A stretch of 64,000 nucleotides of DNA from contig CAIMSU010000332.1 in NCBI GenBank assembly GCA_903844155.1, positions 3,856 through 67,855 of the forward strand, given 5' to 3'. The stretch is from an uncultured Pseudomonadota bacterium (GTDB lineage Bacteria > Myxococcota_A > UBA796 > SXON01). Shown here in pieces: positions 10,292 through 30,738 of the stretch (the first letter of the stretch is position 1; every line of letters starts with the position of its first letter). The position numbers and the translations under genes are program-made. Under the pieces are notes generated by a model that worked only from the letters and a program-made list of their open reading frames with translations, did no database searches and had not been told where the DNA came from.

Positions 10292-12382
10292 TCAGTCGAT
10301 GACCAGCACTTCGTCGCGGGAGACGGCGCGAAGCAAGGCCGCGAGCATGGCCTGCTTGCCCTCGTCCTCCTTGTAGACGTCCTTCAACTGGCCAATCAGG
10401 TCCTTCGCCCGACGGAAGGCGCCGACGAGGTCGCCGCTCATGTCCGTCTCCGAGTCGATGAACAGGAGGCAGTCGTTGAAGCTCCGACCCTCCGCCCACA
10501 TCGCCCCGAACGGGATCATCTCCGGGCACCAGGTCACCGGGAACCCGGTCATGCGCTCGGACTCGACGACGGGCTTGGACATGCGGATCTTGTTCGCGTC
10601 GCGCGCGGCGCCGAGCGCCTGGCCCTGCAGCCGCGCCCGCACGCGGACGTTCCGACCAAACTCCTTGTTGACCGCGCACAACAGCCCGAAAAGCGTCGGC
10701 CCCTCAAGGTCCTCGAGCATGCCGGACAGGATCAGCTCGGTGACGAAGATCTCCTCCATCTGGATGTGCGTCAGCACCTTGGCGCCGGCGTTGAACGCCA
10801 GATCCGGCTGGAGGTAGCCGATGTTCACGAGGAAGTGGATGCGCGATTCGAACTCCAACCACGAGCGGTTCTCGACGTCCTCCGCCCGACGTTCCAGCTT
10901 GTGGATGTCCTTCTCGTGCTGCTTGTGGGCGCCTTTTCGGACCTCCCCGAGCGCCTCCAACTGCACGCGCAGGCGCTCAGCGTCCTCACCCAGGCGCTTG
11001 GCCTCGGCCTGTCGGGCGAACGAGAGAAACGATCGTTCGACGATCTCGCGCACGCGCTCGAGCGGGTTGCGGGAGAGGAGGTTGACGACGGAGTTGAACG
11101 AGAGCGAGAAGCTCGACCGGACGGGCTCGGGCTGCCCTTGAAGCAGCCGGGGGAGGGCTTCTGAGAGGTCGTCCCACTCGCCGTGATCGACGCGGATGAC
11201 GACGTGGCCTTCGGTGTCCATCCCGCGCCGACCCGCGCGGCCGGCCTTCTGGAGGAACTCGCGCGTCGTGAGCGGGCGCATGGAGATGCCGTCGAACTTC
11301 TTGAGGCCGTCGAAGATGACGGTTCGAGCCGGCATGTTGATGCCGAGGGCGAAGGTGCTGGTGCAGTACAGCACCCGGACGAGGCGGCGCTCGTAGAGGT
11401 CCTCGACCAGCGCCTTGACCTGCACGTGGCAGCCAGCGTGATGCCAGGCCACGCCGGCGAGCAAGGCCCGGCGCAGATCATCGTCGATGAGCTGCGGGTT
11501 CTCCTTGTCGATGCGCTCAAGAATGGCGCGAACCGCGTTCACCTGCTCGGGCTCAAGGAGCGAGACGCCCTCGAGCCGCTCCGTGAGCGCGCGCCCGTTC
11601 TGCTCGGTCAGCTTGCGCGAGAAGACGAAGTACAAGCACGGGAGTCCGTTGGCTTCCCAGCAGGCGTGGACCACATCTGCGTGGCTCGTGGTCGGGCCCC
11701 GCGGCCGGCCTCGTCCGCCGCGTTCGGGCTTGCCACCCTGCTTCTTGAGCCAGCGCTGGTGCTCGGCGTCAAACGCCTTCGGCCGAAGCATGCCGGTGTC
11801 CCGCGAGTACACCCAGAAGTCCAGGGGGACCGTGCGTTTGTCCTGACGGATCACCACCATCGGCGTCTGCCGGACCTCGCTCATCCACTCGGCGAACTGG
11901 TTCGCGTTGGAGAGCGTGGCGGACAGCCCGAGGATCTGCACCGTCTTCGGCAAGTAGATCAACAGCTCTTCCCAGACCGTGCCGCGCTCGCGGTCGTCGA
12001 GGAAGTGGATCTCGTCGATGATGACGGCGTCGAGGTCCGCGAACTGGCCCGGCTCGTCGGACAGCAGCATGTTTCGCAGGATCTCCGTGGTCATCACGCG
12101 GCAGGCGGCGTCGCGGCGGATGACGAGGTCACCCGTCAGCAGGCCGACGGCGTCATCGCCATGCGCGCGGGTCCAGTCGCGAAACTTCTGGTTGGAGAGG
12201 GCTTTAATCGGCGCCGTGTAGATGACGGCGCGCTTTTTGGTGAGCGCGCGCTCAACCAACCAGTCGGCGATGATGGTCTTGCCGGTGCCAGTCGGCGCGC
12301 AGACGAGTACGGACTTGCCATCCTCCAGCGCGGCGATCGCATCGGCCTGGAAGGCGTCGAGCTCAAGATCGTGGAATTTCAT
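10292..12382 (-). CDS. Ski2/HelY-like DExH-box RNA helicase
   Basis: Walker A (APTGTGKT) and a DEIH box. Helicase C motifs (TSTFALGINMPA, QKAGRAGRRG). The C-terminal segment resembles a DSHCT domain (GDLVGAFRRAKDLIGQL...SRDEVLV). Confidence 0.9.
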   Translation of the reverse strand: MKFHDLELDAFQADAIAALEDGKSVLVCAPTGTGKTIIADWLVERALTKKRAVIYTAPIKALSNQKFRDWTRAHGDDAVGLLTGDLVIRRDAACRVMTTEILRNMLLSDEPGQFADLDAVIIDEIHFLDDRERGTVWEELLIYLPKTVQILGLSATLSNANQFAEWMSEVRQTPMVVIRQDKRTVPLDFWVYSRDTGMLRPKAFDAEHQRWLKKQGGKPERGGRGRPRGPTTSHADVVHACWEANGLPCLYFVFSRKLTEQNGRALTERLEGVSLLEPEQVNAVRAILERIDKENPQLIDDDLRRALLAGVAWHHAGCHVQVKALVEDLYERRLVRVLYCTSTFALGINMPARTVIFDGLKKFDGISMRPLTTREFLQKAGRAGRRGMDTEGHVVIRVDHGEWDDLSEALPRLLQGQPEPVRSSFSLSFNSVVNLLSRNPLERVREIVERSFLSFARQAEAKRLGEDAERLRVQLEALGEVRKGAHKQHEKDIHKLERRAEDVENRSWLEFESRIHFLVNIGYLQPDLAFNAGAKVLTHIQMEEIFVTELILSGMLEDLEGPTLFGLLCAVNKEFGRNVRVRARLQGQALGAARDANKIRMSKPVVESERMTGFPVTWCPEMIPFGAMWAEGRSFNDCLLFIDSETDMSGDLVGAFRRAKDLIGQLKDVYKEDEGKQAMLAALLRAVSRDEVLVID

Positions 12383-12457
12383 GTGGGGGGGCGGCTATCA
12401 AGGAAGTCGGCGGGAGGCTCCTTTTTGAGGCCGGAGGTGGGAGGAAGGCTGGAGCCA

Positions 12458-12628
12458 GGGGGGCGGGAGGCTGGAGGAGAGGAGATGCGAGGAGATGCGA
12501 ACATTTTACCGCCAAGCAACAACATCAAGACGCCGAGGTCGCCAGGAAGCAGAGGAAGGAAAGGCATTTCCTTGGCGGTTTCAGCCCTTCGTCTTCTCGC
12601 ACTGCCCTCCTCCCGCCTCCCGCCCCCC
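12458..12628. repeat. Composite intergenic repeat, copy A: 22-bp G-rich/C-rich inverted arms flanking a lower-GC structured core
   Basis: Arms 12458-12479 (ggggggcgggaggctggaggag) and 12607-12628 (ctcctcccgcctcccgcccccc) are reverse complements at 21 of 22 positions. A tandem 10-mer, ggagatgcga x2, lies at 12481-12500. An inner stem pairs accgccaag (12507-12515) with cttggcggt (12571-12579). The core matches copy B at 14862-14950 at roughly three quarters of positions by eye. Confidence 0.8.
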
Positions 12629-12640
12629 ACCTACGAGAAC

Positions 12641-12682
12641 CGACGACGTCACTTTTGATATGTATGCAAAGTGACGTCGTCG
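12641..12682. repeat. REP-like palindrome, copy 1 (CGACGACGTCACTTT / AAAGTGACGTCGTCG)
   Basis: Perfect 15-bp inverted repeat (12641-12655 and 12668-12682) around an AT-rich 12-nt loop. The same arms recur at 30563-30614. Confidence 0.85.
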
Positions 12683-12745
12683 ATTTTCGTATGTCCGGGG
12701 TGGGCGGCGGGCCGGTTATTCGCCGCGCGGCATTGGAGTGCGCGC

Positions 12746-14041
12746 TTGATCACCCGCTACAGTCGGCCCGACATGGTCGCGATCTGGACCCCTGAGCACC
12801 GCCTTTCTGTCATGCTGGAGGTGGAGCTGCTCGCGTGCGAGGCGATGGAGGCGAGGGGAGAGGTGCCCGCTGGGACGGCTGCTGTGTGTCGCGAGCGCGC
12901 GCGGTTTGAGATCGAGCGGGTGGACGAGCTCGAGAAGGTGCTCAAACACGACGTCATCGCGTTCCTGACGAACGTGGCCGAGCACGTTGGGGAGCCGGCG
13001 CGGCACCTGCACAAGGGGATGACATCGAGCGATGTGTTGGACACGGCGCTGGCGGTGCAACTCAAGCGCGCGGGAGAGCTCATCCGGATCGAGCTGACAC
13101 GGGCGATGGACGCGCTGGAGCGCCGCGCACGCGAGCACGTCGACACCATCTGCATCGGCCGGTCGCACGGTATCCACGCCGAGCCGGTGACGTTCGGGTG
13201 GAAGCTGTGTCTGTTGTGGGATGAGCTGCGACGCGGGCGGGAGCGGCTCGACCACGCGATCCTCGACATCAGCGTCGGGAAGATCAGCGGCGCGGTTGGC
13301 ACCTTCGCGCATGTCGACCCAAGCGTGGAGGCGTATGTGTGTGCGAAGCTGGGGCTGACACCCGCGCCGGCGTCGAACCAGGTCGTCCAGCGCGATCGCC
13401 ACGCGTTCTTCTTCAACGTGCTGGCGCTGATCGCTACGAGTGTCGAGAAGATTGCGGTTGAAATACGGCATCTACAGCGGACGGAGGTGTTGGAGGCCGA
13501 GGAGCCGTTCACGCCCGGCCAGAAGGGCTCATCCGCGATGCCGCACAAGCGGAACCCGATCCTCTCGGAGAATTTGACCGGTCTGGCGCGGGTGATGCGC
13601 GGGTACGCGTTCACCGCGATGGAGAACGTGCCGCTGTGGCACGAGCGGGACATCTCGCACTCCAGCGCGGAGCGGATCATCGCGCCAGATGCCACGGTGA
13701 CCCTGCACTTCATGCTCGGGAGGCTCGCGGGCCTGCTGGATGGGCTCGTCGTCTACCCAGAGCACATGGTGCGGAACATGGGGGCCTCGGGCGGGCTGTT
13801 CTACAGTCAGCGGGTGCTGCTTGCATTGGTCGAGTCCGGCCGCTCGCGGGAGGACGCCTACTCACTCGTCCAACGTAGTGCGATGCGGACATGGGCGGAG
13901 GGCATCCCGCTGCCCACCCTGCTGGCAGCGGATCCCGAGGTTGGCGGCGTGCTTGGTGCCGACGCCATCGCCGCGCTCTGTGACCCGGCCTGGTATGTCC
14001 GGCACGCGCGCGAGGTGCAGGCGCGGGTGTTCGAATCGTGA
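12746..14041 (+). CDS. purB: Adenylosuccinate lyase
   Basis: Begins LITRYSRPDMVAIWTPEHRL, the typical PurB N-terminus, from an in-frame TTG at 12746. Fumarate-lyase signature GSSAMPHKRNP. The ORF-track start at 12671 would run through the palindrome and is unlikely. Confidence 0.92.
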   Translation: MITRYSRPDMVAIWTPEHRLSVMLEVELLACEAMEARGEVPAGTAAVCRERARFEIERVDELEKVLKHDVIAFLTNVAEHVGEPARHLHKGMTSSDVLDTALAVQLKRAGELIRIELTRAMDALERRAREHVDTICIGRSHGIHAEPVTFGWKLCLLWDELRRGRERLDHAILDISVGKISGAVGTFAHVDPSVEAYVCAKLGLTPAPASNQVVQRDRHAFFFNVLALIATSVEKIAVEIRHLQRTEVLEAEEPFTPGQKGSSAMPHKRNPILSENLTGLARVMRGYAFTAMENVPLWHERDISHSSAERIIAPDATVTLHFMLGRLAGLLDGLVVYPEHMVRNMGASGGLFYSQRVLLALVESGRSREDAYSLVQRSAMRTWAEGIPLPTLLAADPEVGGVLGADAIAALCDPAWYVRHAREVQARVFES

Positions 14042-14703: not shown

Positions 14704-14825
14704 CCTCCCGTGTGGCAATCCTCCTCCCGTAATTCGTATCAGCGCGTGGTGAAATGCACGCCGAGGATTGTGACCGTGTGCGATGCGGGCAGGTCGCTAC
14801 GGAGGGCGCAGCGGGCGAGGAGGAA

Positions 14826-14950
14826 GGCGGGGGAGGCGGGGGAGGCGGGGGAGGCGGGGGAGAAGATTTTGCCGCCAGGGAAGAACATCAGGCCGCCAAG
14901 CTCGCCAAGGAAGAGAAGAAGAACGGGCATTACCTTGGTGTCCCTGGCGC
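14826..14950. repeat. Composite intergenic repeat, copy B: tandem 9-mer (GGCGGGGGA x4) plus conserved lower-GC core
   Basis: 14826-14861 is four exact copies of GGCGGGGGA. The core 14862-14950 aligns with 12499-12585 of copy A. A stem pairs cgccaggga (14873-14881) with tccctggcg (14941-14949). Confidence 0.8.
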
Positions 14951-30562: not shown

Positions 30563-30614
30563 TCGACGACGTCACTTGTGGCGCATTCCGATGCGCCAAA
30601 AGTGACGTCGTCGA
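30563..30614. repeat. REP-like palindrome, copy 2, followed by a partial copy of the composite repeat (to about 30700)
   Basis: 24-bp inverted repeat with 1 mismatch (30563-30586 and 30591-30614) around a 4-nt loop. It shares CGACGACGTCACTT/AAGTGACGTCGTCG with 12641-12682. The downstream ggaggagaggaaga...gaaggcgcagagaaagagggagaacgg resembles parts of copies A and B. Confidence 0.8.
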
Positions 30615-30738
30615 CCGCCCCGGGGGGAGGAGAGGAAGACGCGCTCACGCGAAGGCGCAGAGAAAGAGGGAGAACGGCTCTTCTTTGCCGCTCCGGAGCT
30701 TTGCGTGGTCTCGGGTTCTCGCTCGGGGAGACGCGCGG

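Follow-up and report, generated by a model that had tools for sequence, protein, structure and literature searches.

Bacterial MITEs such as the Correia elements of Neisseria are non-coding sequences of 100-250 nt with terminal inverted repeats, present in many intergenic copies that result from a lineage-specific burst. Another kind of dispersed repeat is represented by the REP/REPIN-RAYT systems and the TIR-TIRYT "TIRtrons", in which short palindromic intergenic repeats, numbering tens to hundreds and often arranged as inverted doublets, are associated with a repeat-flanked partner gene (PMC3116915, PMC3733652). The presence of repeats on both sides of a transposase gene is the arrangement described for RAYT and TIRYT/TIRtron systems (PMC3733652). 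Different repeats can also be combined: the BIMEs of enterobacteria are described as composite intergenic blocks with different palindromic repeats side by side in set orientations (PMC2817692). For a small nuclease that cuts a dispersed repeat with which it is associated, the nearest printed case is that of the Ssn GIY-YIG nucleases, which interact with the NTS repeat and cut near it in single-stranded DNA (PMC11893778). The function of another protein family relevant to this work, GxxExxY, is listed as unknown by Pfam (PMC3424549); no solved structure was matched by the sequence of a GxxExxY protein, and no description of an association between GxxExxY and hairpins was found in the literature searched.

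The window analyzed here, a 64,000-nt stretch of DNA, contains a structured segment at positions 12458-12628. This segment is likely to be one copy of a recently multiplied non-coding DNA hairpin repeat (family A), which would derive from a single founder, represent a gene-less member of a GxxExxY-linked hairpin class and lie in a BIME-like selfish mosaic beside a second repeat (family B). The features that carry this reading are the multicopy dispersal of the repeat, its common descent, lineage restriction and intergenic position, the absence of a coding signal, and its shared arm design. The genome to which the window belongs (G000) is a draft of 8.13 Mb with 68.7% GC, in 375 contigs and with about 5% contamination, so the family copy counts given below are lower bounds. 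The MYXO-CTERM sorting signal had 43 matches in this genome and none in control genomes, which identifies the genome as that of a member of the Myxococcota.

Structure of the helicase-purB spacer

The helicase-purB spacer occupies window positions 12383-12746 (364 nt). The divergent gene context proposed in the first-pass annotation was borne out, the flanking genes being a DEAD/DSHCT-type helicase, on the minus strand with its start at 12382, and adenylosuccinate lyase (purB). The start of purB was placed at the TTG at 12747, based on the N-terminus MITRYSRPEM conserved in three same-genus genomes; alternative starts are a GTG at 12671, which gives the longest open frame, and the ATG at 12774 selected by the gene caller. 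The orthologous spacer measures approximately 57, 75 and 135 nt in the same-genus genomes G001, G003 and G004, compared with 364 nt here, and the extra ~300 nt correspond to the repeat block formed by families A and B. Gene order after purB is not conserved in the same-genus genomes. At window 12393-12405, the spacer also contains a motif, TTCCTTGATA(G/T), that is kept in the helicase-purB spacer of both G000 and G001 (L007) on opposite strands, facing the helicase in the former and purB in the latter.

Most of the structural details that had been read from the letters of this spacer proved to be real (features are given on the plus strand). The inverted G/C outer arms extend over 27 nt, 12458-12484 against 12602-12628, with 24/27 matches (89% complementarity), whereas 300 dinucleotide shuffles of the 364-nt spacer gave a mean of 16.8 arm matches and a maximum of 20. 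The left of these arms is G-rich and built of ~7-nt periodic units (GGGGGGC GGGAGGC TGGAGGA GAGGAG), similar G-rich tandem modules adjoining other family A copies, and the right one is its C-rich complement, defined by the pairing, the shuffles and the fold. The tandem duplication of a 10-mer, AGGAGATGCG x2, is located within the left arm at 12480-12499 and pairs imperfectly with 12586-12601 in the fold. The lower-GC core (12500-12585) has 52% GC, against 67.7% in the window and 78-85% in the arms, and it holds the nested inner stem, in which 12508-12519 pairs with 12568-12579 (12 nt, 92%). When 12450-12720 was folded as single-stranded DNA, two separate hairpins were obtained, at 12458-12628 and ~12633-12699 (z = -7.4).

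The core corresponds to family A. Its left arm, at 12500-12547 (consensus GGGGAGAAGAATTTACCGCCAAGGAAGAACATCAAGACGCCAAGGTCGCCAAGGA; an nhmmer profile detects 22 copies in the genome), includes the end motif ACATTTTACC, unit 1 (ACCGCCAAGC, 12508-12517), a degenerate unit (AACAACATCAAG, 12518-12529), unit 2 (ACGCCGAGG, 12530-12538) and unit 3 (TCGCCAGGA, 12539-12547). Alignment of the copies places a short loop, GAAGCAGAGGAAGGAAAGGCATTT, at 12548-12569, followed at 12570-12584 by a truncated right arm consisting of a single unit, CCTTGGCGGT, and the end motif TTCAG; in most other copies the right arm has two to four CTTGGCG units and then GGTTCAATC. The window copy is of the short-loop subtype; its left arm has three units and its right arm only one, and most of its pairing comes from the outer G-rich and C-rich arms around the A arms. 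Next to it, at 12632-12691, lies an inverted doublet of family B (REPIN/TIR-like) with the units TACGAGAACCGACGACGTCACTTTTGATA and TATGCAAAGTGACGTCGTCGATTTTCGTA. What the first-pass annotation treated as a single element is thus composite, with at least three repeat families nested in one another and a fourth kind of sequence next to them.

Recurrence elsewhere in the window had been claimed for two places. The nearer one is genuine, 12460-12575 and 14826-14938 being 74% identical over an alignment of 119 nt (E = 7e-17). The second family A copy lies here at 14856-14950, with the left arm intact and the right arm degenerate, and is abutted by a tandem 9-mer, GGCGGGGGA x4, at 14827-14862 and adjoined by a 63-nt palindromic repeat of family C at 14712-14774. 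The stem pairing, said to be maintained in this copy by different bases, is so maintained at one pair only, where CCAAGG/CCTTGG becomes CCAGGG/CCCTGG, and not elsewhere. The core fragment reported at 30615-30700 was not recovered, the similarity being limited to an 18-nt purine-rich match (E = 0.08); instead, the piece of the composite that truly recurs near 30600, and the only one, is the neighboring family B-type palindrome, 12641-12683 matching a variant at 30563-30614.

Copies and descent of family A

Searches of the whole draft genome with blastn and an nhmmer profile identified 22 strong, dispersed copies of family A on 20 contigs. Seventeen of them are two-armed and fold as long hairpins, and five are left halves only. 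In the window plus orientation the consensus reads GGGGAGAAGAATTT-ACCGCCAAGG-AAGAACATCAAG-ACGCCAAGG-TCGCCAAGGA, loop, TCCTTGGCG..CTTGGCG..CCTTGGCGGT-TCAATC. The arms are composed of tandem 8-10-nt CGCCAAG units ending in GATTGAACC- or GAATTTACC-type motifs, and the loops range from ~20 to 110 nt between copies, with short-loop and long-loop subtypes. The units ACCGCCAAGG, ACGCCAAGG and TCGCCAAGG make up the left arm, two to four CTTGGCG units the right arm in 17 copies; the right end is GGCGGTTCAATC in most copies, the left end is the variant GAATTTACC, and GATTTTACC also occurs in a Chloroflexia locus (L067). Ten consensus pairs are retained in 12-17 of the 17 two-armed copies.

All 22 copies have in common the 12-nt degenerate unit AAGAACATCAAG, which resembles a degenerate fourth unit, and a 23-mer spanning it had no exact match in a search of one genome each of 185,579 species. 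The copies also share their end motifs and are 75-97% identical over 50-130 nt. The shared unit, together with the lack of a match in that search, indicates that a single marked founder gave rise to the copies, as opposed to separate construction at every locus, and at the level of sequence the descent of all 22 from a single founder can be regarded as demonstrated. Family A was not found in four same-genus genomes. According to crude GC3-based gene calls, 19 of the 22 copies are intergenic, about 9-10 of these lying between convergent genes, three between divergent genes and five in tandem spacers, with one flanking gene called for the other two; of the five copies in tandem spacers, one runs in the direction of the genes and four run against it.

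The proposal of a MITE-like mobile repeat is thus upheld in part. In its favor are the 22 dispersed copies, the mostly intergenic position, the single founder, and the failure to find the family in the same-genus genomes searched or in the orthologous spacer. Like the Correia-type MITEs, family A is non-coding, measures 100-250 nt, has terminal inverted repeats and occurs in many intergenic copies after a lineage-specific burst. Unlike them, it yielded neither a target-site duplication nor a parent insertion sequence sharing its ends, and it cannot be called a demonstrated MITE. The homology boundaries revealed no evident direct repeat, and the spacers of the relatives have diverged too far for a precise empty site to be read from them; no long-range end pair encloses a transposase gene in this genome, nor does any autonomous element there carry family A ends. 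Among the copies, none was seen present in one strain and absent in another, and no movement was seen. The missing target-site duplication is a prediction of hairpin-based mechanisms, although it proves nothing.

One long-range arm pair, on contig C228, was considered as a parent element and rejected, as what lies between the arms is a palindrome together with an ordinary open reading frame of exported-protein-like type. At this site (G000:C228:57470-58575) a plain CGCCAAG left arm faces a family A half-copy across ~1 kb, a stretch in which a family B-like palindrome is accompanied by an open reading frame whose start resembles a signal peptide, and the arrangement is either a split element or two half elements. 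Co-variation of the outer stems between copies was likewise rejected: the own flanks of a copy pair no better than the flanks of other copies (permutation p = 0.22), and the purine-rich left flanks pair equally well with any pyrimidine-rich right flank. No cargo of the 23S rRNA intervening-sequence protein type (PF05635) was present in this genome.

Tandem arrays of 7-9-nt units abut several family A copies, including GGCGGGGGA x4, CCTCCCG x7 and CTCGCCT x11. Long arrays of this type were observed at C93:45555-45616, C350:6110-6191, C47:32380-32473 and C10:3038-3122 of G000, consisting of CCTCCCG x7, CTCGCCT x11, GTGCTCC x12 and CGCGCCAAC x8, two of them directly beside CGCCAAG hairpins. These long arrays may be slippage expansions of arm units. 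Hairpins of 190-320 nt with tandem-unit arms made of other units (CCCGGACCT and GGTGTGGCC types) were also detected in G000, at C164:25958-26275, C195:923-1146, C202:10124-10429 and C289:9344-9533.

Companion repeats and candidate partner genes

Family C is a 63-nt near-perfect palindrome, GTGACAATCCTCCTCCCGCATTTCGTATC..GATACGAAATGCGGGAGGAGGATTGTAAC, with the ends GTGACAATCCTC and GAGGATTGTAAC, present at 41 loci in G000. Of the 22 family A copies, 14 have a family C element no more than 300 nt away (control mean 0.24, maximum 3), and the two are co-oriented in all 12 of those 14 in which the orientation could be read. A unit of ~240 nt, comprising family C, a spacer and family A, can be aligned as a whole across at least seven copies. 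The window copy of family A is unusual in that its neighbor belongs to family B instead of family C. No partner gene was found for family C; a search for genes bracketed by family C or B, made with crude gene calls, returned nothing and also missed the known case on contig C268 described below. Approximately three family C loci were observed in the same-genus genome G001. By analogy, the helicase-purB block resembles a BIME, a mosaic of selfish repeats (PMC2817692): family A, enclosed by G/C arms, stands next to family B, and 14 of the 22 copies have a family C element nearby, co-oriented in the 12 that could be read. The differences are that the sequences and the lineage are unrelated, and that no IHF or gyrase binding is known for the present repeats.

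Family B has a 29-nt unit, TATCAAAA-GTGACGTCGTCGG-TTTTGATA, which forms the inverted doublet at 12632-12691 of the window. A total of 172 units were counted at 103 loci, of which 53 are single, 29 are "-+" doublets and one is a "+-" doublet; the family was not found in five related genomes. Family B doublets occur on both sides of a Y1 transposase-like gene encoding 265 residues (G000:C268:23799-24595; L017 1502-2298), one ~40 nt upstream of the gene and the other overlapping its stop codon. The C268 protein possesses HLH and YIHAN motifs and a C-terminal helix-turn-helix-like tail; it scores above the cut-off of the Pfam Y1_Tnp model (27.3 bits, cut-off 23) and below that of the NCBI RAYT model NF047646 (39.8 bits, cut-off 80). 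By these motifs and scores it is best described as RAYT-like (TIRYT-like in the terms of PMC3733652) rather than as a certified RAYT. Family B conforms to the picture of the REPIN-RAYT systems and TIRtrons, with the differences that the transposase lies below the NCBI RAYT cut-off and that no GTAG tag was seen beside the stem; CGTC is located inside the loop core GACGTCGTC and not beside the stem TATCAAAA/TTTTGATA. Family A is similar to these systems in copy number, location and hairpin form, but it is 110-250 nt long, has tandem-unit arms and flanks no tyrosine transposase gene, its candidate partner being instead a PD-(D/E)XK-type protein. A second RAYT-like paralogue (G000:C113:46393-47178) has an HAH motif and the same C-terminal tail as the C268 protein; it is flanked by a different palindrome, TACCACAAGTGCTCTCCGCAGTTGTGGTA, and may have its own repeat family.

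The candidate partner of family A belongs to the GxxExxY family (PF13366/TIGR04256), of which this genome has two genes, on contigs C213 and C343. The C343 gene lies exactly between inverted CGCAAAG x3 arms. At the C213 gene, the sequence TTCCTTGGCGCACTTGGCGGCCTTGGCGGTTCAATC, found 60 nt past the stop codon, is a right arm of the family A type (CCTTGGCG x3 and GGTTCAATC), and this CGCCAAG-type arm is present on one side only. Across 81 genomes of the order, most strong GxxExxY loci show the design of inverted arms built of tandem units; the units differ between loci (CGCAAAG, CACGGAG, CGCGGAG, CGCCAAG), and both arms within one locus are complementary. Compared with 400 control genes, the inverted similarity of the flanks exceeded the 95th percentile in 10/18 GxxExxY loci of the order and the 99th percentile in 6/18. 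A complete two-armed GxxExxY cassette with CGCCAAG arms was identified in a Sorangium genome (L081).

The exact arm GAACCGCCAAG..CGCCAAG..CGCCAAG was found at at least 118 loci, nearly all of them gene-less, and the hosts of the CGCCAAG arm include Planctomycetota, Chloroflexota, Cyanobacteria, Verrucomicrobiota, Acidobacteriota, several classes of Proteobacteria, and Sorangium. A GxxExxY gene accompanies only one of 80 CGCCAAG-armed loci from other species, so the link to the nuclease is one of shared design and not of proximity. In this genome, CGCCAAG stands alone as an amplified unit type: it forms 22 exact triples, and no other type exceeds three. Family A shares with the GxxExxY-linked hairpins the arms of at least three tandem 7-10-nt units, inverted and forming one hairpin, the GATTGAACC- and GGTTCAATC-type ends, and the large excess of gene-less over gene-bearing copies. 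It differs from them by its extra conserved degenerate unit and its GAATTTACC left end, seen in no other species genome, and by being often joined to the family C palindrome. The shared arm design thus suggests that family A is a gene-less member of this hairpin class, into which its arms fit.

A more speculative extension, which we regard as doubtful, is an undescribed partnership between family A and the resident GxxExxY gene, in which the small PD-(D/E)XK-like nuclease would recognize tandem-unit-arm hairpins and either spread them or spread with them, the 22-copy gene-less burst then having arisen in trans from one marked founder. The closest parallel, Ssn/NTS (PMC11893778), is alike in that a small nuclease gene is linked to a dispersed repeat far outnumbering it; the differences are a GIY-YIG instead of a PD-(D/E)XK-like fold, another repeat design, and biochemistry that exists for Ssn and not for GxxExxY proteins.

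Alternative explanations and significance of family A

The first-pass annotation had offered structured small RNAs or regulatory elements as an alternative to a mobile repeat, and family A could accordingly be imagined as a cis-regulatory RNA that acts on neighboring genes as a processing site, stabilizer or terminator. The strong long fold (z = -7.4), the 12-nt unpaired stretch conserved in sequence and the location of about half of the 19 intergenic copies between convergent genes, where 3' elements would sit, are in agreement with such a role. However, no Rfam family matched anywhere in the window at gathering thresholds, the only hits, below threshold, being generic miRNA-precursor hairpin models, and the observation that the repeat is not a described family holds for Rfam as well as for the papers searched. 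RNAalifold, applied to the 17 two-armed copies with the loop removed, gave 10 pairs with no compensatory change, a result that neither supports nor excludes RNA structure, as these pairs barely vary. The copies are found in mixed types of spacer and in both orientations, being co-directional with the genes in only one tandem spacer against four, and the helicase-purB spacer has no sigma-70-like promoter, intrinsic-terminator pattern or terminator-like T run. Moreover, the family was not found in the four same-genus genomes searched, and the orthologous spacer of these relatives lacks it. An RNA function, left without support by these results, is improbable. The idea that the minus strand encodes a small hydrophobic protein, MPFLPLLPGDLGVLMLLLGGKMF..., could be based on the 83-codon minus-strand open frame (12379-12630) that contains the window copy, on the ATG in the loop of short-loop copies and on the 49-residue product that the gene caller listed at the second copy. 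It was rejected, and we consider it extremely unlikely: variability in the minus-strand frame (MPFLPLLPGDLGVL...) is equal across codon positions (0.093, 0.087, 0.115), the tails beyond the conserved block are not conserved but differ per copy with the flank, long-loop copies have no ATG, and the conserved residues merely translate the CTTGGCG repeat. By codon-position variability, family A is non-coding.

Two further explanations concern the origin of the hairpins as DNA. Each hairpin could be the product of its own locus, created by slippage and template switching among short tandem units, with no element being copied from one place to another. The varied tandem 7-10-nt arrays abutting several copies fit this view, and so does the variation of arm units between GxxExxY cassettes whose own arms stay complementary. 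Against it, the degenerate unit and end motifs are common to 22/22 copies, with 75-97% identity over 50-130 nt, and at least seven copies have the contiguous ~240-nt unit of family C, spacer and family A; the degenerate unit and the ~240-nt unit point to founder copying and not to repeated new formation, which makes local origin quite improbable. Alternatively, family A might be moved not by GxxExxY but by one of the two RAYT/TIRYT-like tyrosine transposases, as a REPIN-like passenger of the family B machinery. The two Y1 HUH transposase-like genes are each flanked by their own palindromic repeat, such enzymes act on single-stranded hairpins and leave no target-site duplication, and the window copy of family A lies directly beside a family B doublet. 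Nevertheless, neither gene is flanked by family A or C sequence, no more than two of the 22 family A copies have family B sequence within 300 nt (control mean 0.3), and the family A arms share no sequence with family B units, so that this route, too, appears unlikely.

The preferred reading, a hairpin repeat multiplied from one founder, would imply that family A spreads as DNA, probably through a single-stranded hairpin intermediate. A resident enzyme may help it in trans, candidates being the GxxExxY protein encoded on C213, with its matching CGCCAAG arm, or a tyrosine transposase. Any effect on the expression of the helicase or purB would then be a by-product.

Taken as a family of sequences, family A looks like selfish DNA rather than a regulatory RNA, and can be placed among the REP/MITE-like elements as a new, marked subfamily with a putative link to an uncharacterized nuclease family. 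This bears on annotation, since the long intergenic "structure" before a housekeeping gene would be selfish DNA that has accumulated there rather than a regulator. Family A is also of interest as a recently amplified and cleanly marked subfamily within a hairpin class that crosses phyla and is linked by design to the uncharacterized GxxExxY nucleases. Because it combines 22 copies of a single founder with just two nuclease genes, this would be a convenient genome for testing whether GxxExxY proteins act on such hairpins.
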